Shown piece after piece: positions 35,992 to 48,380 of a stretch of DNA of 64,000 nucleotides. The notes under the pieces were generated by a model. The model did no database searches. It saw only the letters and a program-made list of their open reading frames with translations, and had not been told where the DNA came from. Numbering within the stretch: position 1 is the stretch's first letter; each line of letters starts with the position of its first letter. Source of the stretch: Oligoflexales bacterium (GTDB taxonomy: Bacteria; Bdellovibrionota_B; Oligoflexia; Oligoflexales; RGVZ01); assembly GCA_947494335.1 (NCBI GenBank), contig CANLUT010000002.1:579904-643903 (forward strand), written 5' to 3'. A program made the translations under genes and the position numbers.

Positions 35992-37017
35992 TTAGCTGAC
36001 TTTAACAGTTAATCCAGGGCCACCAACCACCACATCCATGACCTGGCCCCCGGCATTTGTCATAGCTTTTGAGACTTTTTCCGTGAGTTCGCGCGGACAG
36101 AAGACACCCATGACACCACCGCCGCCCGCACCGCAAACTCTCGTAAACATCGCACCGGCATCCTTGGCTGCGATGTCAACCCGTTTTGTTTCCTCGGTTT
36201 CAATCTTAGGCCAAAGTGCGGTTCTTAGCAGCCACTCGCGTTTAGACGCAGCAATCGCCTCTTTCCACATTTTTTTGGAGACCGCTTCGGCGCAATCAGC
36301 AGCTTCGTGGCCAATGGCGGCAATTTTTTCGAGAAGTCCTTGGTCACCATCGAAGATGCGCTTGAAAATTTCCCAGTTGTTAATGGCGCTGGCTCTTGAT
36401 TTGCCGCTGTAGCAGCAAATCAGGTTAAAGTCCTGCCCCTCCCAGATTGAACCTGGAAGCGTGGTAACAGTTGTGCGCCCAAACGGAAATTCGATGATGT
36501 TTATGCCACCACGCATGCCGCCCCAGTAGTCTTGAACGCCGGTTGGCGCATGTATGACTCGCGACTCCACGTCTTGGGCCGTTCGGACCAGCTCAAACTC
36601 ATCGGGAATTTTATAGGATGGTTCAAACTGTTTGCGCGCTTGAGCAATTGCTCCAACGAATGCGACAGAGAGGCAGCTAGATCCCCCTAAACCTGCTCCA
36701 GCCGGTGATCTTGCGCTGGTTTTGATTTTTATCGCTGGGAGATTCTTGTTCCAAAATGCGCTTAGCAGAAGCGAGAAAAGGCGAAGCTTTGATGAACTGA
36801 TAATTTGTTCAAAAGTCCCGCTATCAGAAATTTTTTGGTCAGTACTTTCAAAATAAAACAATTTGTCAGGAGAGGGTGTCATTTCAACAGAGGCTTCGAG
36901 ACTCACGGCAACGTTGACGGTCGCTTTGCGGTCCAAAAGGTTATGAATGGGCCAAAGGTCAATTGTTCCTCCCGCTAGGTCGACGCGAGTGGGTGCAATG
37001 GAGTTGATTTTGAACAT
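35992..37017 (-). CDS. GHMP-family sugar kinase (HddA/fucokinase-like)
   Basis: N-terminal APTRVDLAGGTIDLWP and the GHMP ATP motif SPAGAGLGGSSCLSVA. Confidence 0.7.
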   Translation of the reverse strand: MFKINSIAPTRVDLAGGTIDLWPIHNLLDRKATVNVAVSLEASVEMTPSPDKLFYFESTDQKISDSGTFEQIISSSKLRLFSLLLSAFWNKNLPAIKIKTSARSPAGAGLGGSSCLSVAFVGAIAQARKQFEPSYKIPDEFELVRTAQDVESRVIHAPTGVQDYWGGMRGGINIIEFPFGRTTVTTLPGSIWEGQDFNLICCYSGKSRASAINNWEIFKRIFDGDQGLLEKIAAIGHEAADCAEAVSKKMWKEAIAASKREWLLRTALWPKIETEETKRVDIAAKDAGAMFTRVCGAGGGGVMGVFCPRELTEKVSKAMTNAGGQVMDVVVGGPGLTVKVS

Positions 37018-37630: not shown

Positions 37631-37917
37631 CCATGATTGACGCCAAAAATATGTCCGACGAAGGTTTAATCGCACATTATGTGATTGAGCTTCTTGGAGC
37701 CGGACATTTCCTGTCCCATGATGACTACGCGCGGCTTGGAAAGTGGCGTGAACTGTCTTCGTCAACTGATGAGCTGCTTCTCGTCTTAGATGAAGTCCTG
37801 TCCGCAAAAATTATGAAATCTCGTCAAAAGGGCAAAAAAGTTTTTTCTCTCTCCTCGATCAGCAAAACTATGGAAAAAAGGCTGAGTGAGCGAAAAATGC
37901 TCGTTCAAGGGGCTTAA
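37627..37917 (+). CDS. Hypothetical small protein
   Basis: 96-aa ORF, translationally coupled on both sides. Alternative ATG at 37633. No family recognised. Confidence 0.4.
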   Translation: MTMIDAKNMSDEGLIAHYVIELLGAGHFLSHDDYARLGKWRELSSSTDELLLVLDEVLSAKIMKSRQKGKKVFSLSSISKTMEKRLSERKMLVQGA

Positions 37918-37918
37918 C

Positions 37919-38314
37919 ATGTCAAAAACTACTGATGTCGATATGGACAAGATTGTCGAAAGATTGAAAATAGACCGCATCAAGCGGCATATTTTTTTAT
38001 GTACTGGAGACAAATGTTGTTCGGCAGAGACTGGCATGAAAACCTGGGAGTTCCTTAAAAAACGAACTAAGGATGCTGATGCCGTTGAGGCTGGAGTTTA
38101 CCGAACAAAGGTTGGTTGTCTTCGCATTTGCCGCGAAGGTCCTATAGCTCTCGTTTACCCCGAAGGGGTTTGGTACAAAAATGTCACGGTTGACGCATGC
38201 GAGAAAATCATCGATCAGCATTTGATCTGTGGACAAATTGTGGAAGAACTAAAAATCGCCGAGCATTCATTACATCTGGATTTATCGTCAGGTGGCCAAT
38301 GGGACACCCCCTAG
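37919..38314 (+). CDS. Thioredoxin-like [2Fe-2S] ferredoxin family protein
   Basis: HIFLCTGDKCC and GCLRICREGP give the CX4C...CX3C cysteine pattern of thioredoxin-fold 2Fe-2S ferredoxins. The ATG at 37919 lies 1 nt after the upstream stop. Confidence 0.6.
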   Translation: MSKTTDVDMDKIVERLKIDRIKRHIFLCTGDKCCSAETGMKTWEFLKKRTKDADAVEAGVYRTKVGCLRICREGPIALVYPEGVWYKNVTVDACEKIIDQHLICGQIVEELKIAEHSLHLDLSSGGQWDTP

Positions 38315-38438: not shown

Positions 38439-38521
38439 TTAAATATGAGACAATCTACTGAGGAATTCACATTAATGTTCAGTGTCTAGGTTGCTAATTT
38501 AATTTGGAGTGGAGTCAAAGT

Positions 38522-39283
38522 ATGACGGAACTAACAGCAGCGCAGTTTTCGCTCGTTTACAACATGTTTTCTTTAACCATTGCTAGTATGGGGGCAGCAT
38601 TCATCTTCTTCCTAGCATCTAGGTCGCAAGTCGCGCCGAAATACCGTGGTGCGCTTACAGTGTCATCGTTGGTGGTGGCGATTGCTTGCTATCACTATTT
38701 CCGTATCTTCAATAGCTGGAACGAAGCGTTTACCTTAAGCGGCGCAGTCTACACGCCATCTGGGAAACCATTCAACGATGCTTACCGCTATGTTGATTGG
38801 CTTTTGACAGTTCCTCTACTTCTTGTTGAACTCGTTGCAGTATTGGCTTTGCCAAAAAATCAGCGCGAAGGCCTCTTTGGTAAGCTAGCTATCGCGGCTT
38901 TCCTGATGATTGCACTTGGTTACCCTGGTGAAGTCGCTACAGATAACACAACTCGCGCCATTTGGGGCACACTGTCTTCGATCCCATTCGCATACATCCT
39001 AATGATCCTTTGGGGCAAATTGGGTGCAGCAATCGAAAGCCAGCCAGGCGAGGCTAAAGTCTACTTGACTAATATCCGCCTACTACTTCTTTTGACTTGG
39101 GGCTTCTACCCAATCACCTACATGCTTCCGATGTTCGGCATTGACCCACAATCCTCGGTTGTTGGTATTCAGGTTGGATATGCTGTCGCTGACGTGCTTG
39201 CAAAAGCCTTCTACGGCGTTATGATCTACTGGATCGCAAGAGCTAAGTCAGAAAACGAAGGTTTCGCTGACGCTGCCCACTAA
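38522..39283 (+). CDS. Microbial rhodopsin, proteorhodopsin/xanthorhodopsin-type outward proton pump (DTE motif)
   Basis: Seven TM helices. RYVDWLLTVPLLLVE gives D92/T96/E103 (the DTE motif). H58 sits in CYHYF (the PR/XR-clade His). L100 is at the spectral-tuning site. ADVLAK gives D224 and the Schiff-base K228. WGFYPITY is in helix F. The ATG at 38522 follows GGAGTGGAG. The track's TTG at 38504 is less likely. Confidence 0.9.
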   Translation: MTELTAAQFSLVYNMFSLTIASMGAAFIFFLASRSQVAPKYRGALTVSSLVVAIACYHYFRIFNSWNEAFTLSGAVYTPSGKPFNDAYRYVDWLLTVPLLLVELVAVLALPKNQREGLFGKLAIAAFLMIALGYPGEVATDNTTRAIWGTLSSIPFAYILMILWGKLGAAIESQPGEAKVYLTNIRLLLLLTWGFYPITYMLPMFGIDPQSSVVGIQVGYAVADVLAKAFYGVMIYWIARAKSENEGFADAAH

Positions 39284-39323: not shown

Positions 39324-41372
39324 TTAAACCGCCTTCGCTGAAAAGCGAGGCGGTTTTTTCTTCAGAAATCTTTTCATGACCGGCGCATGAGACGCAGTTA
39401 AAGCTCCGATCCCTAAGAAAACGATCTTCCAAATTTGTTGACTACCGCCTGAGCGCGCATAGAGCCAGGCGAGCAGAAGAATCCCTACAAGGCTCAAGGT
39501 CGTGTAGGGGAGACTTTTTAACAGGTATTGCTTAGATGACCAGCCTTTTGCAGCTCGTTGGACCGCAATAGAATCCCAGCCGTGCCAGAATGCGAAGAAA
39601 CAAAAAAACCCAGGCAGTAGAGGTAGCGCCAAGGTTGAAGCGGCGAGCGCCAATGTAGCGGGCATTCCGATCACAGACCTACCAAGAGTCTTACGCTCAT
39701 ATCGATCAAAAATCGCGGACACAAACAGTGCTGCAACGAAAACAAGTACGCCGCATGCGCGCGCGGCCTCCAAGGTGATTCCCTCGATTGAAAGCGAATC
39801 ACCAAGAATTAACTGAATAATCGAATTGGCCTCCTGCCAATGGACTAGAACACCAAAGGTTGCGGCAAAAAAACCCCATACCCAAGCTAACACGCGGCTC
39901 CAAGTGGCATTCTTCGAGCTTTTTATGGCACGAATCCAGTTTGCCTCGCCGAAATGATCTGCAGATTGGAACAGGAAAAATGCTAACGCCATCGGGGGAA
40001 ATACAAACCAAGTGAGAATAAACAGTGCTATGGAGCCAAGATAAACACCATAAAACTGATAGGGTCTTTGAGCTGTGGGCTCAAGGAGATGATCTACGCT
40101 GCCGTGCCCAATTCCAGTCGTTAACAGACCTATGATGGGAATCGTCCATCCGGCCAAACCACCAAGTGTCCAATGAAGAACGAGACTGGCCGACGCCGCA
40201 AATATAAACGGATACAAAACTAAAAGACTACGTAAAAATGGAGCCCAAGGCAGACCAAAAAATATTCTAATTTCTTCAGTAAATTTCGATTTTTCATCAA
40301 GGAATAAGAGGATTTTTGAGGGACTATTCGCAGAGAAAAGAATGCAAAATACTTTCGAGATCATTTCTCCATTTGTTCTGATAATTCGCAGAAGAAGTGC
40401 GTCATAAACCTGAAAGCGAAAATGTCCGTAGGACGTGGTCGCTAAACCAGTCAAATGCCGAAGGTTTCTCTGGAAAGAGTAGCCTGTGCTTGCTTTGACC
40501 ATACCAGCAGCACTACCAATGACCTGGATAACTGAACTAGAGTCAGACCCTGGGAATTTCGGCTCCGCATTGAGAGTCATGGGAATAGCACCTGATTCTA
40601 CCTTGAGGATTTGGAAGTCTGGTAAGCAAAGCTTGCTAGAAATATATTCTCGAAGTATTGACTCACACTTTTCCAATGAGATCCTGTTGGCTGCAAACAC
40701 CGTAAATTCGACCAAAGCGCGACGTCGATCAAACGGTAAAACATACACAAAGCGAACTTCGCCGCGTTGTTCAAGCCTAAAATCCATCAAGTCCACTATT
40801 TGCGGATCAAAGTAATCCCGCTCTGTTTCAAGTTCAAAACCGAGGAAATACTGTAATAATTCGGACTTTTCGACAGTCACAGAATTATAGATACGCTTGG
40901 CTGAAAACGTCTGGCCAGACGCGGTCGTGACGACGGCTATCCTCTCTGCGTTGACCTCCTCGGGTCGCTCTAGAATCTCGGTGACAGAATCTTTGAGTTT
41001 TTGAAATCTTATATCGTTTTCGAGTCTTTGCTTGATTTTGATTAGGAGGCGGTCCCCGGGAATTCTCTCGTAGTAGTAATCACCAAAGTTACAGATAATT
41101 GGCCGACCATCTGTCGAAGTTATCCGAAATTTCTCCCAGCGGTTTTCGATACAATCTGAATAACGATGGGGAGTGGTTGTTTTAAGGCGCCATGAGGCAA
41201 ATGTCTTGGATGAAAGCGACTCAGGGTCTGGATCGATGATCGCAACTCGAAGATCTTTTGACGGGTCATCTGCAAGAATATCGGCTTGCATCAGACCCGC
41301 TAACCCACCACCAACGATTATGACGTCGAAATCTGTCAAATTGGAGACCATTTTATCAGCCTCCCTTTCCAC
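39324..41372 (-). CDS. Fusion protein: lycopene beta-cyclase (CrtY family) N-terminal, Brp/Blh beta-carotene 15,15'-dioxygenase C-terminal
   Basis: Cyclase half (about aa 1-385): FAD fold DVIIVGGGLAGL, FVYVLPFDRRRALVEFTVF, VIGSAAGMVKASTGYSF. Blh half (about aa 385-682): polytopic, with conserved His motifs GIGHGSVDH, QSADHFGE and FAFWHGWDS. One uninterrupted frame. Alternative ATG at 41351. Confidence 0.85.
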   Translation of the reverse strand: MEREADKMVSNLTDFDVIIVGGGLAGLMQADILADDPSKDLRVAIIDPDPESLSSKTFASWRLKTTTPHRYSDCIENRWEKFRITSTDGRPIICNFGDYYYERIPGDRLLIKIKQRLENDIRFQKLKDSVTEILERPEEVNAERIAVVTTASGQTFSAKRIYNSVTVEKSELLQYFLGFELETERDYFDPQIVDLMDFRLEQRGEVRFVYVLPFDRRRALVEFTVFAANRISLEKCESILREYISSKLCLPDFQILKVESGAIPMTLNAEPKFPGSDSSSVIQVIGSAAGMVKASTGYSFQRNLRHLTGLATTSYGHFRFQVYDALLLRIIRTNGEMISKVFCILFSANSPSKILLFLDEKSKFTEEIRIFFGLPWAPFLRSLLVLYPFIFAASASLVLHWTLGGLAGWTIPIIGLLTTGIGHGSVDHLLEPTAQRPYQFYGVYLGSIALFILTWFVFPPMALAFFLFQSADHFGEANWIRAIKSSKNATWSRVLAWVWGFFAATFGVLVHWQEANSIIQLILGDSLSIEGITLEAARACGVLVFVAALFVSAIFDRYERKTLGRSVIGMPATLALAASTLALPLLPGFFCFFAFWHGWDSIAVQRAAKGWSSKQYLLKSLPYTTLSLVGILLLAWLYARSGGSQQIWKIVFLGIGALTASHAPVMKRFLKKKPPRFSAKAV
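39326..39359 (+). terminator. Rho-independent terminator for the rhodopsin gene, embedded in the 3' codons of the convergent crtY-blh gene
   Basis: AAACCGCCTTCGC-tgaaaa-GCGAGGCGGTTTTTT: a stem with one bulge followed by a T6 tract. Confidence 0.6.
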
Positions 41373-42493
41373 TCATAGCGACCACTCTGACTGGTCCTTA
41401 GGGCCTTGTAAGCAGCGATGTCCAATAGCAGTAAACTGAGCGGGTGCAGCAGTAGATCACGAAGTGGCATCATAAAACATTTAGCCACTAAAACCCTGCT
41501 CAAAGCCAACAAACAAAGTGAAATAAAGGCCAACTCGGGTCGAAAAAAATAACCCCAAATTGGAAATAGAAAAACAAAATTAATAAATCCGATAACGCAT
41601 CTAAAAACCGACGGTGTACCACCACCGATCGCCACTAGATTTTTCGAAAATCCAGCCAAGGTAGCCCGCCAATCGGGGTACATCGATACCCGAATGTGAC
41701 TCGCTGAGAGAACTGGCTGAAGACCACGACCTGTGACTCGGTGAATCTGACGCGCCAGTTCGACGTCCTCTAACGGGGTCGAACCAAGACCTCGGTGACC
41801 GCCGCTTTTACAATAGTCCCTCTTGAAGATGGCGACCCATTGCCCATTTGCCATCTGCATCGATTGCAAGGGTAAGCGCCACGAGCAAAACAAGGGTAGC
41901 GACATCATTAATGGAAGATGCATAATCCATGGTATCAGTAAACGCTCACGCAAGCCTTGGCACGACTGTGCTGGTAAAGCCGATAACCCGGACATTAGCT
42001 CGCGCGCCCGTGGCTGCATCAAGAGATCTACGGTACAACGAACAGCGCTGGGCGAGGGTCGCACATCGGCGTCGCAGAAAATTAAAATATCTCCATTAGC
42101 TAAGTCGGCAAGTTGTGCGCAAGCATGAGCTTTCCCCGAGATTTCTTTACTATCGTTCCATGGGACTCCCCGCACGATCTTTAATGGGATAGTAGTATTT
42201 GACAAGAACGAGTTTGCAATCGCTGAGGAGTCGTCGTGAGACTCGTCATCTAAAATAATCACCTCCATTGGTCTGTAAGTTGATGCCAGCAGATTCGTCA
42301 GAAGGTGGGGGATATTTTCGGCCTCATTTCGAACAGGTATGAGTAAACTGACCAGGGGTTTTTCACCTGAATATTCAGTCACACTTCCCAGTTTAGTTGC
42401 AAAAATTGCATTAAGGATGACCATTATCGTGGAGATAACAATGACCGAGAATGAAATCAAACTTACGATGTTACTGAGGAGGGTTAGATCCAT
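41336..42493 (-). CDS. Family-2 glycosyltransferase (candidate carotenoid glycosyltransferase, CruC/CruG-like)
   Basis: VSLLIPVRNEAENI...VIILDDESHDDS and FCDADV are GT2 (GT-A) motifs, with C-terminal TM helices. Overlaps both neighbours within the crt operon. Confidence 0.7.
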   Translation of the reverse strand: MDLTLLSNIVSLISFSVIVISTIMVILNAIFATKLGSVTEYSGEKPLVSLLIPVRNEAENIPHLLTNLLASTYRPMEVIILDDESHDDSSAIANSFLSNTTIPLKIVRGVPWNDSKEISGKAHACAQLADLANGDILIFCDADVRPSPSAVRCTVDLLMQPRARELMSGLSALPAQSCQGLRERLLIPWIMHLPLMMSLPLFCSWRLPLQSMQMANGQWVAIFKRDYCKSGGHRGLGSTPLEDVELARQIHRVTGRGLQPVLSASHIRVSMYPDWRATLAGFSKNLVAIGGGTPSVFRCVIGFINFVFLFPIWGYFFRPELAFISLCLLALSRVLVAKCFMMPLRDLLLHPLSLLLLDIAAYKALRTSQSGRYEWKGRLIKWSPI

Positions 42494-43152
42494 CGGTGGA
42501 CGCCTCCTGCTAGTAAAGTCTGGGGTGCGTTCAAGGATGCTACATCTAAAATTTTTGTGACTTCAGTCTCTAAAGTTTTATGATCAACTTCAGTACGCGC
42601 GCTATCAATTGGTTGACCGGCGTAAATGAAGGCCGTCGGCCTCTCATGATTCATAGGCTCAATGTGCAGCCCAATAGGAACGTACTGAACCCGACCTGTA
42701 ATTTTAGATAGTATTTCAATTCCACGCAGAAAGCCGAGTGGCCGTTGCCGCAGTGGTGATATTTTCCCTTGTGGGAAAAATGTTAGAGTCCGATAAGGAT
42801 TACTGGCAACCAGGTCTCGAAACTGCATAAAAGCTCGACGCACACTTGTTGGATTTCCCGGCTCTATTCCAAAGCAACCCACCTTGCGTAAGATTGGGAA
42901 TTTCGCAAGTTCGCTTTCCAGCATCAATGAGAAGATACCGGATCCAGGCCTCAGGCGATTTTGGACTTCAAAGCAGAAAAAACCATCCCACCAGCTAATA
43001 TGATTTGGCACCAATATAACTGGTACCTCAGGATTCAGTTGACCAATGGCGTTTTTCAAATCGAAATGTATAGATGCAAAACATTTCTGGTACTTCCAAT
43101 GGAGGTACCGATCCCAAAACCATCGGACAATGTCGTTATGTCGAGGTGCCAC
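42484..43152 (-). CDS. PlsC-type acyltransferase (candidate carotenoid-glycoside acyltransferase, CruD-like)
   Basis: HX4D motif in VPNHISWWDGF, and FFPQGK. The functional assignment is by context. Confidence 0.65.
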   Translation of the reverse strand: MAPRHNDIVRWFWDRYLHWKYQKCFASIHFDLKNAIGQLNPEVPVILVPNHISWWDGFFCFEVQNRLRPGSGIFSLMLESELAKFPILRKVGCFGIEPGNPTSVRRAFMQFRDLVASNPYRTLTFFPQGKISPLRQRPLGFLRGIEILSKITGRVQYVPIGLHIEPMNHERPTAFIYAGQPIDSARTEVDHKTLETEVTKILDVASLNAPQTLLAGGVHRWI

Positions 43153-44017
43153 GGGTCAATAATCCGAGCTGCAAAGTCCCTCGCGTGAAACTAAAAAGAC
43201 AGAGTAATAATAGTGTAACGGTCGTAAGAACAACAGGTGACCAGGCTGATCCAGCAATTGAAAGACCAACCGGAAGGGACAGGCTTAACAAGTAAAATTT
43301 GGCAGGCCACGAACGCTCAAAGCGATGGCCATAATTTGATAAACCCAAAATCTCAAAACTGAGGAATATTAAAAAGCCGGTGAGCAACCATCCAAAAAGA
43401 TTTCTGACGGCAACTCCTAAGAAAAAGACCCCAGACTCTTCCCAAATCCAGTAAGGAGTTAACTGACTCATGGCAGGCTCCAGGGTGAAATCCCAGGCGA
43501 CTAGGAGCAATGATGCTATGATGATCCGTCCGAGGGGATGCGCCAAGCGACCTATAGAGCCTCGAGAGGCTCTCAGAGGTTTAGGCCCAAGAATCTGATT
43601 TGCTAGCAGATAACAACACAGAGCCATGCAAAACCAACTCACAGGAATCAACACAGGAACTTTATCGCCAAGCTTCCATCCAAGGAGGCTCGTATAGGAA
43701 TATTTGCCAAACGGGATACCGTAGCTTGTGCCGCCAAATTCCATAAAAAAACTGATCAAAAAAGCAGGCAGAAAGTACACCAGCCAACGCCAGCCCAAAA
43801 CTTTGTGGGCGGCCCTTATGCACAACCAAAAGCAAAGAAGAATCTGCAATCTAGCAAAAAGCGGGTATGATATGGCATAAATTGGCGGAGACCACGGATA
43901 GCGCGCAAAAAGCTCTGGATGTAGCGTAAAAGTTGCGTATCCAAAAATTGATATGGCATTAATGAAAAGCAAGGCCCACATTGGGGAGAAGAATAGCACA
44001 TGAGTCACTCGGGGCAA
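43136..44017 (-). CDS. Carotenoid biosynthesis membrane protein, DUF422/CruF-like (candidate carotenoid 1',2'-hydratase)
   Basis: Polytopic. GGTSYGIPFGKYSYTSLLGW and LEPAMS...WIWEESGVFFLGVAVRNLFGW resemble the Caroten_synth/CruF family. The track start is TTG 44017. ATG 43981 (MWALLFIN...) is a plausible alternative. Confidence 0.6.
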   Translation of the reverse strand: MPRVTHVLFFSPMWALLFINAISIFGYATFTLHPELFARYPWSPPIYAISYPLFARLQILLCFWLCIRAAHKVLGWRWLVYFLPAFLISFFMEFGGTSYGIPFGKYSYTSLLGWKLGDKVPVLIPVSWFCMALCCYLLANQILGPKPLRASRGSIGRLAHPLGRIIIASLLLVAWDFTLEPAMSQLTPYWIWEESGVFFLGVAVRNLFGWLLTGFLIFLSFEILGLSNYGHRFERSWPAKFYLLSLSLPVGLSIAGSAWSPVVLTTVTLLLLCLFSFTRGTLQLGLLTRGTST

Positions 44018-44761
44018 GGATATTTAGGACGTACGACAGTCATCAGCAGTGACAGCACAGCTCCGGCCTTAGGATGTTTAGTCGTTACCACATGGGTTGT
44101 AAGCCTTTGGTATGCGTTTACGCGCGTTCAAACAGGTGTTTTCCCTGACTCTTTAGCCAGCATTGCCTTAATGCTCTGGATGCAGTTTCTTTATTGTGGT
44201 CTATTTATCGTGACCCACGATGCCTGCCATGGCACTGCGTGGCCCGGAAATCCGAGGCTGAATCGATGGCTGGGGAAAACTACAGCGATGCTGTATGCGG
44301 CCTTTGATTTCGATCATCTGGTCCCGAAGCACCTTGCTCATCACGCTCATGTTGCAACCCTCCAAGATCCAGATTTCCACGATAATACTCGGCAGGGGAG
44401 AGGTTTTTCCGCCTGGGGTTGGCGATTTTTTAAGCATTATCTGAGCCTAAGGCAAATTCTTATCATGATGGCTGTGGCTCAGATTTTTTTTCATGTGCTG
44501 AATATACCGGAGAGAAACGTCATCCAATTTTGGATCGTCCCAGCTATTTTGAGTGGCATGCAGCTCTTTCTATTCGGCACTTGGCTACCACACAGGCCAA
44601 AAGCTGGTGAAGAGTTTCCCGATCGTCATCACGCGAGAGACTCTGGACTACCTTGGTTATTATCACTCGTTTCCTGCTGGCATTTCGGCTACCATCATAT
44701 TCATCACTTGAAACCCAGCGTGCCTTGGTACAGGTTACCGTCCTATAGGAGGCGAAAATGA
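44000..44761 (+). CDS. crtW: Beta-carotene 4-ketolase, CrtW type
   Basis: Fatty-acid-desaturase-type His boxes in CrtW arrangement: FIVTHDACHG, KHLAHHAH, DPDFH, WLPHRP and HFGYHHIHHL..PWYRLP. Confidence 0.85.
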   Translation: MSHSGQGYLGRTTVISSDSTAPALGCLVVTTWVVSLWYAFTRVQTGVFPDSLASIALMLWMQFLYCGLFIVTHDACHGTAWPGNPRLNRWLGKTTAMLYAAFDFDHLVPKHLAHHAHVATLQDPDFHDNTRQGRGFSAWGWRFFKHYLSLRQILIMMAVAQIFFHVLNIPERNVIQFWIVPAILSGMQLFLFGTWLPHRPKAGEEFPDRHHARDSGLPWLLSLVSCWHFGYHHIHHLKPSVPWYRLPSYRRRK

Positions 44762-44964
44762 AATTGCGATCGATCTTAATGTGGACCACGGGTGGCGCGT
44801 TGTTTGGAGTCGCCTTCGGAGCGATAGCTTCTATCTTTCAAGGTGGTCCAGATATGATGCGAGGTATCCAGGAATCATGGTGGTGGTTTGGCGTCGCTGG
44901 ATTTTTGATATCAACGATCGGCAACGGCAGCGATCCCGCGAGTGGCTCTAGTCAATCTCATTGA
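44758..44964 (+). CDS. Small two-TM membrane protein, translationally coupled to crtW
   Basis: The ATG overlaps the crtW stop (ATGA), with AGGAGG 5 nt upstream. 68 aa with two hydrophobic helices (GGALFGVAFGAIASIF; WWWFGVAGFLISTIG). Its last 54 nt overlap the 3' end of convergent crtB. Confidence 0.45.
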   Translation: MKLRSILMWTTGGALFGVAFGAIASIFQGGPDMMRGIQESWWWFGVAGFLISTIGNGSDPASGSSQSH

Positions 44965-45822
44965 CCCCAGTCCTTTGATCTTGAATACAAGTAATAGACC
45001 CTGAGCGACTGCGACTAACTTGCCCAGATTCGAAACCACAGTTCGCCTGCGGAACGCAGATTCTGGATTTACTTTCGCAGATCGCAACAGTTTATGCCCA
45101 ATTCGCTGATAAACCTTACCTGCGATTGCAATGGCAAAAGACACTCTCCAAGGCAGCCAGTAGATCCCTTGAAATCCATGTTCATACAACTCGTCTGCTC
45201 TTCGAAGTAGTTTGTTGACCGCATAGTGCGCAATTTCAGGATTGGTCGACAAAACCTTTGCGTCGATATTAACCAAAAGATCTTTGGGTATATAGATGCG
45301 ACCAATACTTGCATCGGCTTGGATATCTCGGGCGATGTTAGTCAACTGCATCGCAGAGCCCAGAGAAATAGCGTGAGCACTTGCCTGGTCAGGATGAGCT
45401 CCGAGAAGTGGGCACATCATAAGTCCTACGACGCCCGCGACACGAAAGCAATACTGTTCGAGCTCTTTGAGATTCCCGTAGCGGCAGCCTTCCACATCCA
45501 TGCGCATACCGGCAATGAATTCTGATCGCTGCCAGTCATCTAGCCAAAGCGGTCCAGAAAGAGCTGCATTTACTGACCCACGATTTTCCATCAGGGAAAG
45601 TCGTGCCTCTGCCGACTGCGAGTCAGGTGCATCATCGATGGCGTCATCACAGCGCCTACACCACTGATAAAGAAGTAAGACTTTGTCTCGGCAGCTCTTC
45701 GGCAGGAAAAGTGAGGCTAAGGAGAAACTTTTTGAGCCTTGCTTGATGACTTCAGCTGGAGACGAAGTAAAGTTAATTGTTTGTGAGTAAGTCATGCGTC
45801 GCTCCCGGCTCGCGACTTCCAA
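44911..45822 (-). CDS. crtB: Phytoene synthase
   Basis: YCFRVAGVVGLMMCPLLG and AMQLTNIARDIQADASIGRIYIP are squalene/phytoene synthase signatures. Alternative ATG at 45795. Confidence 0.9.
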   Translation of the reverse strand: MEVASRERRMTYSQTINFTSSPAEVIKQGSKSFSLASLFLPKSCRDKVLLLYQWCRRCDDAIDDAPDSQSAEARLSLMENRGSVNAALSGPLWLDDWQRSEFIAGMRMDVEGCRYGNLKELEQYCFRVAGVVGLMMCPLLGAHPDQASAHAISLGSAMQLTNIARDIQADASIGRIYIPKDLLVNIDAKVLSTNPEIAHYAVNKLLRRADELYEHGFQGIYWLPWRVSFAIAIAGKVYQRIGHKLLRSAKVNPESAFRRRTVVSNLGKLVAVAQGLLLVFKIKGLGSMRLTRATRGIAAVADR

Positions 45823-47329
45823 CGGGGAGAGCTGCCTTCAAGTCTTGAAGTACCAAAGATGCAGTAGCCTTAGCCGAGTTGACGACTCCTGGAACGCCGG
45901 CGCCTGGATGAGTCCCAGCCCCTGTAAAGTACATTCCAGCAACTCGACCATCGCGGTTATGAGTGCGAAAGAATGCGCTTTGCCAGAGTACGGGTTCACT
46001 GGAAAACGCTGAGCCCAGGTGTGAGTTTAATTCAAATTTGAAATCCAACGGAGTGAAAATCTTCTGAGTCACAATGTGCTTGCGCAGGTCGGGAGCGTAA
46101 TGTTGCTCAATATAACTTAATATACGGTCTGCGTAGGCTGGGCCTTCCTTTTGCCAGTCTAAATGAAGATTTCCGAGGTGCGGCACTGGAGATAGAACGT
46201 AAAATGCTTCACACCCTTCAGGCGCCATCCCTGGATCAGTCCGCGTCGGAGCATGCAAGTAGAGAGAAAAATCATCCGGGATTTTACTAGCCTTGGAAAA
46301 GATTTGACTCAAAAGTCCACGGTAGGACTTTCCGAAAAGAATATTATGATGTGCAAGCTCTGGATACTGTTTGTTAGTACCAAAATACACTAAGAATAAT
46401 GACATGCTTTGCGAGTGACTAAGAACCTTCTTTCGTCCTTGCTCTGCCTCGGGGGCGTTTCTTAGAAGATGGCTGTACGTGTGTACAACATCCGCGTTGG
46501 AAACAACAACATCACAAGGCCATACGCCGCTTGCAGTTTTCACACCACTAACGTGACCCTCAGTTGTGATGATCTCCTCCACTGGCGACGATAATCGAAC
46601 CTCACCACCGAGCTCTTCAAAGAGTCTGACTAATGCACGAACCAAAGCACCCGTGCCACCGCGTGGGAAGAAGACACCCCACTTTCGCTCAAGATAGTGG
46701 ATCAAAGTATAAATAGAAGACGTTTTAAAAGGGTTGCCGCCAACCAATAGCGTGTGAAAACTGAAGGCTTGACGGAGCTGAGGATCCTTGATGAAACGTG
46801 CGACCGTCTTGAAAACTGAGCGATGAGCGCTTAGTTTGGCTAGCTGCGGAGCGACACGGATCATGCTCCACCAGTTTAGGAACGGCACGTGGGCTAGTTT
46901 CGTGTAACCCTCGTCAAAAACCTCTTTTGAATATTTCAGAAATCTGGAGTAGCCATCCGTATCTTGTGGGGATTTTTTTTGAATTTGATCAAAAGTGCTT
47001 ACGGGGTCGTTGGAGTAATCAAATGAAAACCCATTCTCCCAGAATAATCGATAGAAGGGCGTCACAGGCATCATCTCGACGTAGTCTTCCATCCTTTTAC
47101 CGGCACAGTCGAAAAGTTCTCGCAAACAGTCTGGAGCAGTGATGACAGTCGGTCCGGCGTCAAACGTAAAGCCTTTGTCCCGGTAAACGTATGCCCGGCC
47201 TCCGGGTTGATCCCGTTTTTCAAACACTACAACCTGATGGCCTGCCGCTTGCAATCGGATGGCGGCAGCAAGACCTCCAAACCCACTTCCAATGACAGCA
47301 ATACGAGCAGAGTTCTTATTTTTATGCAT
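45773..47329 (-). CDS. crtI: Phytoene desaturase
   Basis: N-terminal IAVIGSGFGGLAAAIRL and the C-terminal CrtI signature FTGAGTHPGAGVPGV. Confidence 0.9.
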   Translation of the reverse strand: MHKNKNSARIAVIGSGFGGLAAAIRLQAAGHQVVVFEKRDQPGGRAYVYRDKGFTFDAGPTVITAPDCLRELFDCAGKRMEDYVEMMPVTPFYRLFWENGFSFDYSNDPVSTFDQIQKKSPQDTDGYSRFLKYSKEVFDEGYTKLAHVPFLNWWSMIRVAPQLAKLSAHRSVFKTVARFIKDPQLRQAFSFHTLLVGGNPFKTSSIYTLIHYLERKWGVFFPRGGTGALVRALVRLFEELGGEVRLSSPVEEIITTEGHVSGVKTASGVWPCDVVVSNADVVHTYSHLLRNAPEAEQGRKKVLSHSQSMSLFLVYFGTNKQYPELAHHNILFGKSYRGLLSQIFSKASKIPDDFSLYLHAPTRTDPGMAPEGCEAFYVLSPVPHLGNLHLDWQKEGPAYADRILSYIEQHYAPDLRKHIVTQKIFTPLDFKFELNSHLGSAFSSEPVLWQSAFFRTHNRDGRVAGMYFTGAGTHPGAGVPGVVNSAKATASLVLQDLKAALPVGSREPGATHDLLTNN

Positions 47330-48380
47330 ATGCAGTCATCACTTTCTGTGCCAGCTCTCGTAGCGAGGATATTGCCGCCACTTGCGCGCTAGTTTCGACG
47401 ATACAATTTAACTGATCCAAACATGTTTCGAATTCTGTCGTTGCTAATTCATGAGCCTTCTCGACGACTCGCTTTAAGAGTAATGAATCATCACTAGAAA
47501 TTTGATTAGGATTTCCCATCAAGTGCTGAAATCTCATAAATTCCGCCGCTTCAAGTTCTCTGGCAGCTACAGCCCAAACCCAGGAAGGCCTGACTAGTGG
47601 CCTACTGATCGTTTGATTCTTATTTTTTGGCGATACATCTCCAATGTCGTTAAACATCTGTAAGGCCACGCCGAAACGCTGACCGAATTTTGCCAGACAG
47701 CGGCGTCTCATTGAGTCCGCCTCACCCACGATTGCGCCTAATTCAGCACACATACCAGTTAGCTCGCCAGTCTTCAGTTCTATCGCTGCAACGGAAATAT
47801 CGAGCGCTTTCTGTTGAGAGCATTGGGTCATGTCGTGGCCAAGGTCAAGAGCCTGCCCCTGATGAGCGTACAGCATGGTCTTGTGGAAAAGACGGTAGAT
47901 CTCGAGCTCAACGGATGGATTAAGAGCCTGCTGACGCAGTAAATCTATTGGCCAAAAATAAAGCCAGTTCGCCGCATTGATGGTACGTGGAACTCCGATC
48001 TGCATATGCAGCGCCGCCTTGCCGCGGCGCATTTCGTCTGCATCTTGGATGTCATCGATCATGAGTGAGCCAGCATGCAAGGCTTCAACCACGCATGCCA
48101 AGCAGTCGAGAAGTGATTGCTGGCTTGCGATCAAGGGTTCAGCCTTAGTATTGGCGATAGTAAATCCAATGTGAACTAGTTGCGCACGAACCTGCTTGGA
48201 ATTACGACTTGCAAACTCACGAACCGGTGCTACCAAAGCAGCGTCTAAACTAGGATCAGAGGCGCTCGGTAGATGAGCAGCTAAAATAGGCACTAGCTCG
48301 GACCGGGTGTTATTATTTTGCAAGTATGTTTTATGATTTATCACCGGGAGAAGGGTAATAGATGTCTCAGTCGGGGTCAA
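47322..48380 (-). CDS. crtE: Polyprenyl (geranylgeranyl) diphosphate synthase
   Basis: First Asp-rich motif LMIDDIQDADEMRRGK. The second motif is degenerate (FNDIGD). First gene of the crtE-crtI-crtB unit, with an 8-nt overlap onto crtI. TTG start in the ORF track. Confidence 0.8.
   Translation of the reverse strand: MTPTETSITLLPVINHKTYLQNNNTRSELVPILAAHLPSASDPSLDAALVAPVREFASRNSKQVRAQLVHIGFTIANTKAEPLIASQQSLLDCLACVVEALHAGSLMIDDIQDADEMRRGKAALHMQIGVPRTINAANWLYFWPIDLLRQQALNPSVELEIYRLFHKTMLYAHQGQALDLGHDMTQCSQQKALDISVAAIELKTGELTGMCAELGAIVGEADSMRRRCLAKFGQRFGVALQMFNDIGDVSPKNKNQTISRPLVRPSWVWAVAARELEAAEFMRFQHLMGNPNQISSDDSLLLKRVVEKAHELATTEFETCLDQLNCIVETSAQVAAISSLRELAQKVMTAYA

Follow-up and report, generated by a model that had tools for sequence, protein, structure and literature searches.

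A CrtY-Blh fusion encoded beside a xanthorhodopsin gene in an Oligoflexales bacterium and found in other freshwater and marine bacteria

One reading frame encodes a lycopene cyclase domain and a Brp/Blh dioxygenase domain

Here we describe a gene, crtY::blh, that joins a flavin adenine dinucleotide (FAD)-type lycopene cyclase domain (CrtY) with a beta-carotene dioxygenase domain of the Brp/Blh family (Blh) in one polypeptide. The gene lies in a 64,000-nucleotide stretch of DNA from an Oligoflexales bacterium (GenBank assembly GCA_947494335.1, contig CANLUT010000002.1, positions 579,904 to 643,903), which we call the window, next to a xanthorhodopsin (XR) gene and within a cluster of carotenoid genes. 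Minus-strand positions 39324..41372 hold a single unbroken open reading frame (ORF), which the ORF listing counts as 682 codons by running on mechanically to a GTG at 41372. An ATG at 41351 is favoured over this GTG as the start: GGGAGG stands 8 nucleotides (nt) 5' of it, it overlaps the stop of the upstream glycosyltransferase gene by 16 nt, and every orthologue has an 'MV..' start at this position. Because these three features point to ATG 41351, we use a 675-residue numbering throughout, and the gene most likely spans 39324..41351 on the minus strand, with 675 codons and a stop. A sequence-only reading of the window had described one unbroken two-domain frame of 682 codons; the ORF listing and the profile matches given below bear out the frame and its two domains, and the start moves to the likely ATG, which shortens the product to 675 amino acids (aa).

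Two Pfam families account for most of the protein. Lycopene_cycl (PF05834) matches aa 16-308 (E 4.2e-50; 171.4 bits against a cut-off of 23.4; profile positions 1-284 of 380), and the family of Brp/Blh dioxygenases, BCD (PF15461), matches aa 415-667 (E 3.7e-32; 112.4 bits against a cut-off of 28). The NCBIfam Brp/Blh model TIGR03753 is matched over nearly its whole length (profile positions 2-259 of 260), scoring 121.7 bits where the cut-off is 95.25. The CrtY and Blh identities first proposed from the letters alone are upheld by these scores, both domains exceeding their Pfam cut-offs and the Blh domain that of TIGR03753 as well, and by catalytic signatures that are invariant among homologues; a comparison of the C-terminal half with the Brp/Blh profile, which the same reading had named as a check, gives a match above the cut-offs of both PF15461 and TIGR03753. 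The motifs it had quoted (DVIIVGGGLAGL, FVYVLPFDRRRALVEFTVF, GHGSVDH, SADHFGE and FWHGWDS) are all present in the ORF. A tblastn search of the 64-kb window returned no second homologue of blh or of CrtY-type crtY.

The CrtY domain comprises residues 1-374 (40230..41351, minus strand), as delimited by PF05834, Foldseek and an alignment of the junction. Near its N terminus it carries the putative dinucleotide (FAD) binding motif DVIIVGGGLAGL (residues 9-20; 41292..41327, minus strand), which includes GGGLAGL, of the GxGxxG type, and in which G14 and G16 are invariant in 51 fused homologues. The cyclase signature FVYVLPFDRRRALVEFTVF follows at residues 201-219 (40695..40751, minus strand) with the pattern FxYxxP...LxExT; F201, Y203, P206, E215 and T217 are invariant, and stand-alone CrtY homologues share its E[FY]T. 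The C-terminal part of the domain aligns with stand-alone CrtY proteins as far as their LPWxPFL end. Compared with the PDB by Foldseek, the N-terminal domain finds its best matches in the geranylgeranyl reductases 4opg, 3atq and 3oz2 (E ~1e-10, probability 1.0), flavoproteins of the p-hydroxybenzoate hydroxylase (PHBH) fold. We considered whether the domain could be a generic redox flavoprotein serving Blh and rejected this, since the cyclase-specific motif is invariant and the minimal gene clusters described below need a cyclase.

The Blh core extends over 39327..40163 on the minus strand, as judged from PF15461, TIGR03753 and invariant columns. Four histidines, His416 (40104-40106), His466 (39954-39956), His590 (39582-39584) and His655 (39387-39389), all encoded on the minus strand, are invariant in an alignment of 51 fused proteins of the window's own, Oligoflexia-type lineage, and in 42 sequences of a more distant, Bacteroidota-type lineage the equivalents of the GxGxxG glycines, the cyclase Glu and Thr and the four histidines are likewise all invariant. 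In a preprint based on an AlphaFold model of the characterised Blh, from the uncultured marine bacterium 66A03, the iron site is a plane formed by His21, His78, His188 and His256; His256 is conserved across 500 homologues, and His192 is argued not to be an iron ligand (10.64898/2026.08.06.743266). Replacement of His21, His78, His188 or His192 by Ala is reported to lower activity to less than 5% (review, PMC9227343). The histidines of the fusion are spaced 50/124/65, against 57/110/68 for His21/78/188/256, and match the published plane; four residues beyond His590 there is no counterpart of His192.

An added hydrophobic helix connects the domains

How are a cyclase and a probably polytopic dioxygenase joined? 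Between the two domains lies the hydrophobic helix SLLVLYPFIFAASASLVLHWTL (residues 375-396; 40164..40229, minus strand), delimited by hydropathy and by alignment of the junction, with a mean Kyte-Doolittle value of 1.8. The sequence-only reading had placed the domain border at about aa 385; the two-domain order holds, with CrtY homology ending at about residue 374 (nt ~40230), the helix following at 375-396 and the Blh core coming after it. This helix is seen in both fused lineages, and stand-alone CrtY and short stand-alone Blh proteins lack it: stand-alone CrtY proteins finish at LPWxPFLxxL (window residue ~375) followed by short hydrophilic tails, and the short stand-alone Blh proteins P0139 and P0149 start 10-15 residues ahead of the first histidine-bearing helix. 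The first histidine of the characterised Blh stands at residue 21 (PMC9227343; 10.64898/2026.08.06.743266). From the CrtY end motif to the motif of the first histidine there are about 39 residues in the window's group and about 50 in the Bacteroidota-type proteins, and each of these segments contains an 18-mer with a hydropathy of about 2.

AlphaFold2 models the window protein, from the 51-sequence alignment, with a mean predicted local distance difference test score (pLDDT) of 90.7 and a predicted template modelling score (pTM) of 0.89; a Bacteroidota-type representative reaches a pLDDT of 87.3 and a pTM of 0.83. In the window protein pLDDT exceeds 90 over residues 360-420, and the two domains are therefore predicted to form one rigid body. 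The model is all-helical from residue 369 onwards, with about ten long helices and several hydropathy peaks above 1.5, compared with nine helices in the model of the 66A03 Blh. We infer that helix 375-396 is a topological adaptor and tether, joining a peripheral flavoprotein on the cytoplasmic side to a polytopic dioxygenase. Among solved structures, none is related in sequence to either domain, and the confident two-domain models offer a starting point for two enzyme families that lack an experimental structure.

The fusion is conserved, abundant and falls into two lineages

A scan of one genome per species yielded ten further full-length loci (47-87% identity) and a contig-end fragment, L011, that retains the Blh part only. 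The named loci are mostly labelled Oligoflexales (Bdellovibrionota), and many come from fresh water, including Lake Mendota, ELA, the Rio Grande and Lac Pavin. At the nine closest loci, all in metagenome-assembled genomes (MAGs; 57-89% identity by domain), the frame is open throughout, with no internal stop, and in tblastn the segment matching CrtY runs straight into that matching Blh without a change of frame. Ratios of nonsynonymous to synonymous substitution rates (dN/dS, omega) against the three nearest orthologues are 0.06-0.16 for the CrtY part, 0.06-0.20 for a 60-residue junction and 0.10-0.12 for the Blh part, values that place both halves and the junction under purifying selection.

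Beyond these loci, about 70 full-length homologues with both domains came from a word-indexed search of 5.8 billion proteins, and phmmer, run exhaustively against 1.84 billion cluster representatives, had about 60 two-domain proteins (645-703 aa) within its top 150. A profile of the distant, Bacteroidota-type group added more than 100 clusters at 90% identity, some of them with 100-500 member sequences and some from Tara Oceans. Both domains occur together in 168 of the first 310 proteins collected, in every case with CrtY first and Blh second, and the reverse order was found in none; co-occurrence of the two domains elsewhere, a search that had been proposed from the sequence, is in this way documented in more than 160 homologues with a single order. 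Source databases label the fusion with one function only, either 'lycopene beta-cyclase' or 'Brp/Blh family'. Few entries carry a taxon name, and those are at MAG level: Oligoflexales, Bdellovibrio sp., Bacteroidia, Crocinitomicaceae, Saprospiraceae and Ignavibacteria. The fusion is a large and environmentally abundant family of freshwater and marine habitats, not a peculiarity of the window. Within the Bacteroidota-type set (P0315-P0414), single 90%-identity clusters have up to 496 members, and one member lies on an 806-kb contig.

The two lineages differ in several respects. Oligoflexia-type proteins, which include that of the window, are 40-88% identical to the window protein, and neighbour-joining unites their CrtY domains as a clade in each of 100 bootstraps. 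Bacteroidota-type proteins, also present in marine data, are 25-32% identical to it, have the longer connector and carry LVELTRF in the cyclase motif in place of the LVE[FY]T seen both in stand-alone CrtY proteins and in the window's group; their CrtY domains are not separated from those of 31 stand-alone CrtY proteins (0 of 100 bootstraps). In the neighbour-joining tree of Blh, stand-alone proteins interleave with the fused domains of the Oligoflexia type. A word-indexed search with the Blh domain alone gave six matches, and the trees contain no stand-alone Blh relatives that would root the Bacteroidota-type lineage. On these trees, the family may have arisen by one fusion followed by fissions, or by several independent fusions.

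The rhodopsin and carotenoid gene cluster

Convergent with the fusion gene is the gene of an XR-family proton pump (38504..39283, plus strand), which combines the DTE motif and the Schiff-base Lys with a Gly where the Salinibacter ruber XR has Gly156, the carotenoid window. The pump scores 294 bits against Salinibacter XR (3ddl) and 283 bits against Kin4B8 (7ytb), the xanthorhodopsin of an uncultured Bdellovibrionota bacterium, and belongs to the same XR family as the latter. A link of the cluster to the published Kin4B8 fosmid was sought and rejected: the rhodopsins of the window and of the related loci L012, L017 and L020 are XR-family proteins, and none is Kin4B8. A terminator-like hairpin with a T-run at 39333-39350 (plus strand) falls within the final codons of crtY::blh, the convergent ORF, and presumably serves the xanthorhodopsin gene; the basic C-terminal tail of the fusion is encoded opposite it.

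On the minus strand the carotenoid genes run in the order GGPP synthase, CrtI, CrtB and then CruF, acyltransferase, glycosyltransferase and crtY::blh, and neighbours overlap. They encode a CrtE-like polyprenyl (geranylgeranyl diphosphate, GGPP) synthase (47322..48380), a CrtI-family phytoene desaturase that is the sole desaturase of the cluster (45773..47329; TIGR02734, 664 bits against a cut-off of 238), the phytoene synthase CrtB (44911..45822), a CruF-like carotenoid 1',2'-hydratase, acting on the acyclic psi-end (43136..44017; PF04240, E 1e-43; NF045693, 139 bits, below cut-off), an acyltransferase resembling carotenoid glycoside acyltransferases (42484..43152) and a family-2 glycosyltransferase (GT2) resembling carotenoid glycosyltransferases (41336..42493; below the equivalog cut-off), the stop of which overlaps the start of the fusion. 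A plus-strand gene for a CrtW-like beta-ring 4-ketolase (44000..44761; NF045690, 224 bits, below the cut-off of 350) sits between the crtE-crtI-crtB group and the group running from cruF to the fusion. The cluster of an XR pump with crtW, cruF, acyltransferase and glycosyltransferase genes therewith looks salinixanthin-like, with CrtW, CruF and GT2 scoring below equivalog cut-offs. No separate CrtD or 3',4'-desaturase was found in the cluster. The second-best model of CrtI is the bifunctional CrtID (330 bits, below its cut-off of 640). Possibly the antenna carotenoid is not salinixanthin itself, or CrtI carries out an additional reaction.

This order is identical at L001-L009 as far as those loci reach, and L017 has the same genes with the crtE-crtI-crtB group on the opposite side of the rhodopsin gene. 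A rhodopsin gene adjoins the fusion in the window and at all 17 related loci that reach past the gene (L001-L010 and L013-L019), and in every context examined that rhodopsin carries the DTE proton-pump motif. Its type varies with the company it keeps: antenna genes go with XR-type rhodopsins (72-100% identical to that of the window), not with proteorhodopsin (PR)-like ones (28-35%). Within the window's own lineage, the cluster at L015 and L016 is minimal: the fusion is accompanied by a PR-like DTE rhodopsin gene, crtB, crtI and crtE, and antenna genes are absent. At the Bacteroidota-type loci L013, L014, L018 and L019 the fusion adjoins the gene of a PR-like DTE rhodopsin, and the vicinity holds no further carotenoid genes. 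Paired DoxX_2-family genes flank both copies of the minimal five-gene photosystem (L015 9274-15365; L016 9144-15548).

Two clusters syntenic with that of the window, with CrtW, CruF, acyltransferase, GT2 and XR genes, have a stand-alone Blh of 301-303 aa in place of the fusion (L012 3955-4860; L020 5377-6288). These proteins, P0130 and P0137, keep the extra N-terminal hydrophobic helix, and at L020 blh abuts the glycosyltransferase gene just as the fusion does in the window; no crtY was found within the locus sequence covered at L012 and L020. Such stand-alone proteins may reflect secondary loss of the cyclase part or, equally, a pre-fusion state.

In amino acid sequence the xanthorhodopsin of the window is 100% identical to that of L001, from an Oligoflexales MAG of Lake Mendota, and shares 88-98% identity with its counterparts at L002-L009, against identities of only 50-95% for the adjacent carotenoid genes; across these loci the pump is far more conserved than the enzymes that make its pigments.

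A proposed source of retinal and its alternatives

Taken together, these observations make it likely that the product of crtY::blh is a genuine two-domain enzyme, kept by selection, which supplies the adjacent rhodopsin with its retinal chromophore. We take the N-terminal domain to be the cyclase because the minimal clusters at L015 and L016 need one and offer no other candidate; that the fusion itself has cyclase and dioxygenase activities is what its domains and their neighbours suggest. In the mechanism that we propose, cyclisation by the CrtY domain would take place on the cytoplasmic side of the membrane and lead from lycopene through gamma-carotene to beta-carotene; the extra transmembrane (TM)-like helix would tie this domain to the C-terminal, probably polytopic Blh domain, whose four-histidine iron site would cut beta-carotene at the 15,15' bond into two retinal. 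Tethering would put the product of the cyclase beside the dioxygenase, so that beta-carotene is cleaved and neither accumulates nor is ketolated by CrtW. The branch to the antenna would then lie at gamma-carotene: once released, it would be hydrated by CruF at its psi-end, which would block a second cyclisation and commit it to a keto-glycoside-ester antenna, and if retained or rebound it would be cyclised again and cleaved in place. The idea, already present in the sequence-only reading, that one cyclase feeds both retinal and a monocyclic antenna fits the neighbouring genes for XR, CrtW, CruF, acyltransferase, glycosyltransferase, CrtB, CrtI and GGPP synthase.

Several points weigh against this picture. 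The cyclase scores 54 bits against the NCBIfam CrtY model TIGR01789 (cut-off 215.2) and 103.8 bits against the carotene cyclase model TIGR01790 (cut-off 209.5), reaching neither threshold. It is on this ground that we call the cyclase of the fusion divergent; its branch also holds its nearest relatives, stand-alone CrtY homologues of Bacteroidota-like type, and the profiles accordingly do not fix whether the predicted product is mono- or bicyclic. The search for CrtY-type genes covered the 64 kb of the window, and a second cyclase may be encoded elsewhere in the genome. Channelling, if it occurs, cannot be obligatory, because the genes for CruF, CrtW, the glycosyltransferase and the acyltransferase imply that a monocyclic intermediate has to leave the enzyme. 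Finally, the fusion is dispensable, because the syntenic loci L012 and L020 make do with a stand-alone Blh.

Why, then, join the two enzymes? A fuller proposal, which we offer tentatively and regard as less likely than not, is that CrtY::Blh is a natural 'retinal synthase', in which the added TM helix solves a topology problem, the flavoprotein cyclase is rigidly docked on the dioxygenase and beta-carotene is transferred directly; the architecture would have been gained or lost repeatedly in Oligoflexia and Bacteroidota, and in XR clusters it would form the branch point that sets the ratio of retinal to antenna, with released gamma-carotene going to the antenna and retained gamma-carotene to beta-carotene and retinal. 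An alternative that we regard as possible, if somewhat unlikely, is that both halves are active without any kinetic channelling, the fusion serving equal expression and membrane anchoring of the cyclase or being a near-neutral economy of genes in streamlined planktonic genomes. The stand-alone Blh of otherwise syntenic clusters, the interleaving of stand-alone and fused forms in the Blh tree, the escape of an intermediate to the antenna pathway that the window's cluster requires and the sporadic occurrence of CrtIB, CrtYB and CrtIBY fusions (PMC10284914) would all be expected under this alternative. It accounts less readily for the constant domain order and the conserved linker helix, for the rigid, high-confidence packing predicted in two lineages of only 25-30% identity, and for the size and abundance of the family, which argue for a retained advantage.

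We consider it improbable that the N-terminal domain is a lycopene monocyclase and that Blh cleaves gamma-carotene or a derivative into one retinal and one acyclic apocarotenal, so that a single monocyclic pool serves both antenna and chromophore. CruF and the other downstream enzymes do need a monocyclic substrate, the cyclase falls under the CrtY equivalog cut-offs, and Blh cleaves gamma-carotene both in vitro and in E. coli (PMC9227343; 10.64898/2026.08.06.743266). The reported in vitro kcat/Km of Blh, however, is 97 for beta-carotene and 0.55 for gamma-carotene, a preference of about 175-fold (PMC9227343); the fusion also occurs in minimal, retinal-only clusters and in Bacteroidota without a linked monocyclic pathway, and its cyclase motif is the same as that of stand-alone CrtY homologues.

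It is very unlikely that the Blh domain naturally acts on a carotenoid already ketolated by CrtW, such as echinenone or canthaxanthin, and so yields 4-keto-retinal in place of retinal as the chromophore. The cluster does encode CrtW, and in E. coli Blh readily intercepts beta-carotene intermediates and cleaves canthaxanthin efficiently when its expression is tuned; yet fusion to the cyclase would favour cleavage ahead of ketolation, the fusion also occurs without crtW (L015 and L016), and the partner xanthorhodopsin shows the hallmarks of an ordinary retinal pocket.

The concern that assembly, sequencing or a frameshift had merged adjacent crtY and blh genes, raised when the frame was first noticed and lent some colour by the usual occurrence of the two as separate neighbours and by one-domain fragments among database entries (P0019, P0035), can be set aside with near certainty, because the fusion is in frame and free of stops at nine independent orthologous MAG loci (57-89% identity) and recurs in more than 160 two-domain homologues from JGI, ENA, NCBI, Logan and Tara sources, and because the junction, with an omega of ~0.06-0.2 indicative of purifying selection, has no intergenic remnant and is a conserved helix modelled at pLDDT >90.

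Relation to known systems

One close parallel is the cluster with separate genes, PR-crtE-crtI-crtB-crtY-blh, to which the characterised 66A03 Blh belongs. The enzyme families, the reaction steps, the four-histidine site and the adjacency to a DTE rhodopsin are shared, whereas here the two enzymes form one polypeptide, always CrtY then Blh, with an extra hydrophobic helix between them. A cyclase domain directly followed by a C-terminal Blh domain is also found in the nearest precedent, the CrtI-CrtB-CrtYc/d-Blh protein of the eukaryote Thecamonas, for which direct conversion of beta-carotene to retinal was suggested (PMC10016063). That protein differs from ours in being eukaryotic, in having four domains, in using a membrane-embedded CrtYc/d cyclase unrelated to the FAD-dependent CrtY, and in having no bacterial operon context.

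Other fusions in rhodopsin-related clusters, the fungal CrtYB, the thraustochytrid CrtIBY and the verrucomicrobial CrtIB, likewise join consecutive enzymes of the pathway, and better transfer of metabolites has been proposed for them (PMC10284914); their partners are others, and none joins a cyclase to a cleavage dioxygenase. In that 2023 study, which deals with verrucomicrobial rhodopsin clusters, CrtBY and CrtIBY are given as the known natural fusions and CrtIB as new, and CrtY-Blh goes unmentioned (PMC10284914). With the XR/salinixanthin system of Salinibacter ruber the window shares an XR pump with the Gly156 window and has candidate genes for a ketolase, a psi-end hydratase, a glycosyltransferase and an acyltransferase, the set that a salinixanthin-like acyl glycoside would call for; Salinibacter has a CrtYcd-type cyclase and no crtY (PMC5877348).

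The sequence-only reading knew of no description of the fusion. For the bacterial, FAD-type form this agrees with the full-text literature, in which we found no description of such a CrtY-Blh fusion, the search leaving subscription-only papers, where a prior mention is possible, outside its scope; for a cyclase followed by Blh as such it does not hold, the Thecamonas protein with its non-homologous cyclase being a published precedent (PMC10016063). What we describe is the union of two consecutive, well-understood enzymes in a single conserved protein, which is abundant, has apparently gone undescribed and carries a linker helix suggestive of how the two came to be joined.

The fusion overturns nothing in our understanding of these pathways, and its use lies in the annotation of rhodopsin photosystems. 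In abundant uncultured bacteria of fresh and marine waters it reduces the classic rhodopsin photosystem from six genes to five, and a census of the retinal pathway based on crtY and blh as separate genes could miscount these genomes, because fusions are annotated for one function and never for both. It also offers nature's own template to those who engineer retinal production and already use synthetic fusions of enzymes, and in XR clusters the division of lycopene by a single cyclase between chromophore and antenna becomes directly testable.

Other genes near the cluster

Two further ORFs lie beyond the rhodopsin gene. On the plus strand, just 5' of the xanthorhodopsin gene, an ORF of 142 aa (37886-38314) resembles thioredoxin-like 2Fe-2S ferredoxins (NF041612, 61 bits, below cut-off); of the related loci, L001 alone conserves it. 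On the minus strand, near the cluster, 35992-37017 encodes a GHMP-family kinase with weak matches, far below cut-offs, to heptose-7-phosphate kinase and mevalonate kinase.

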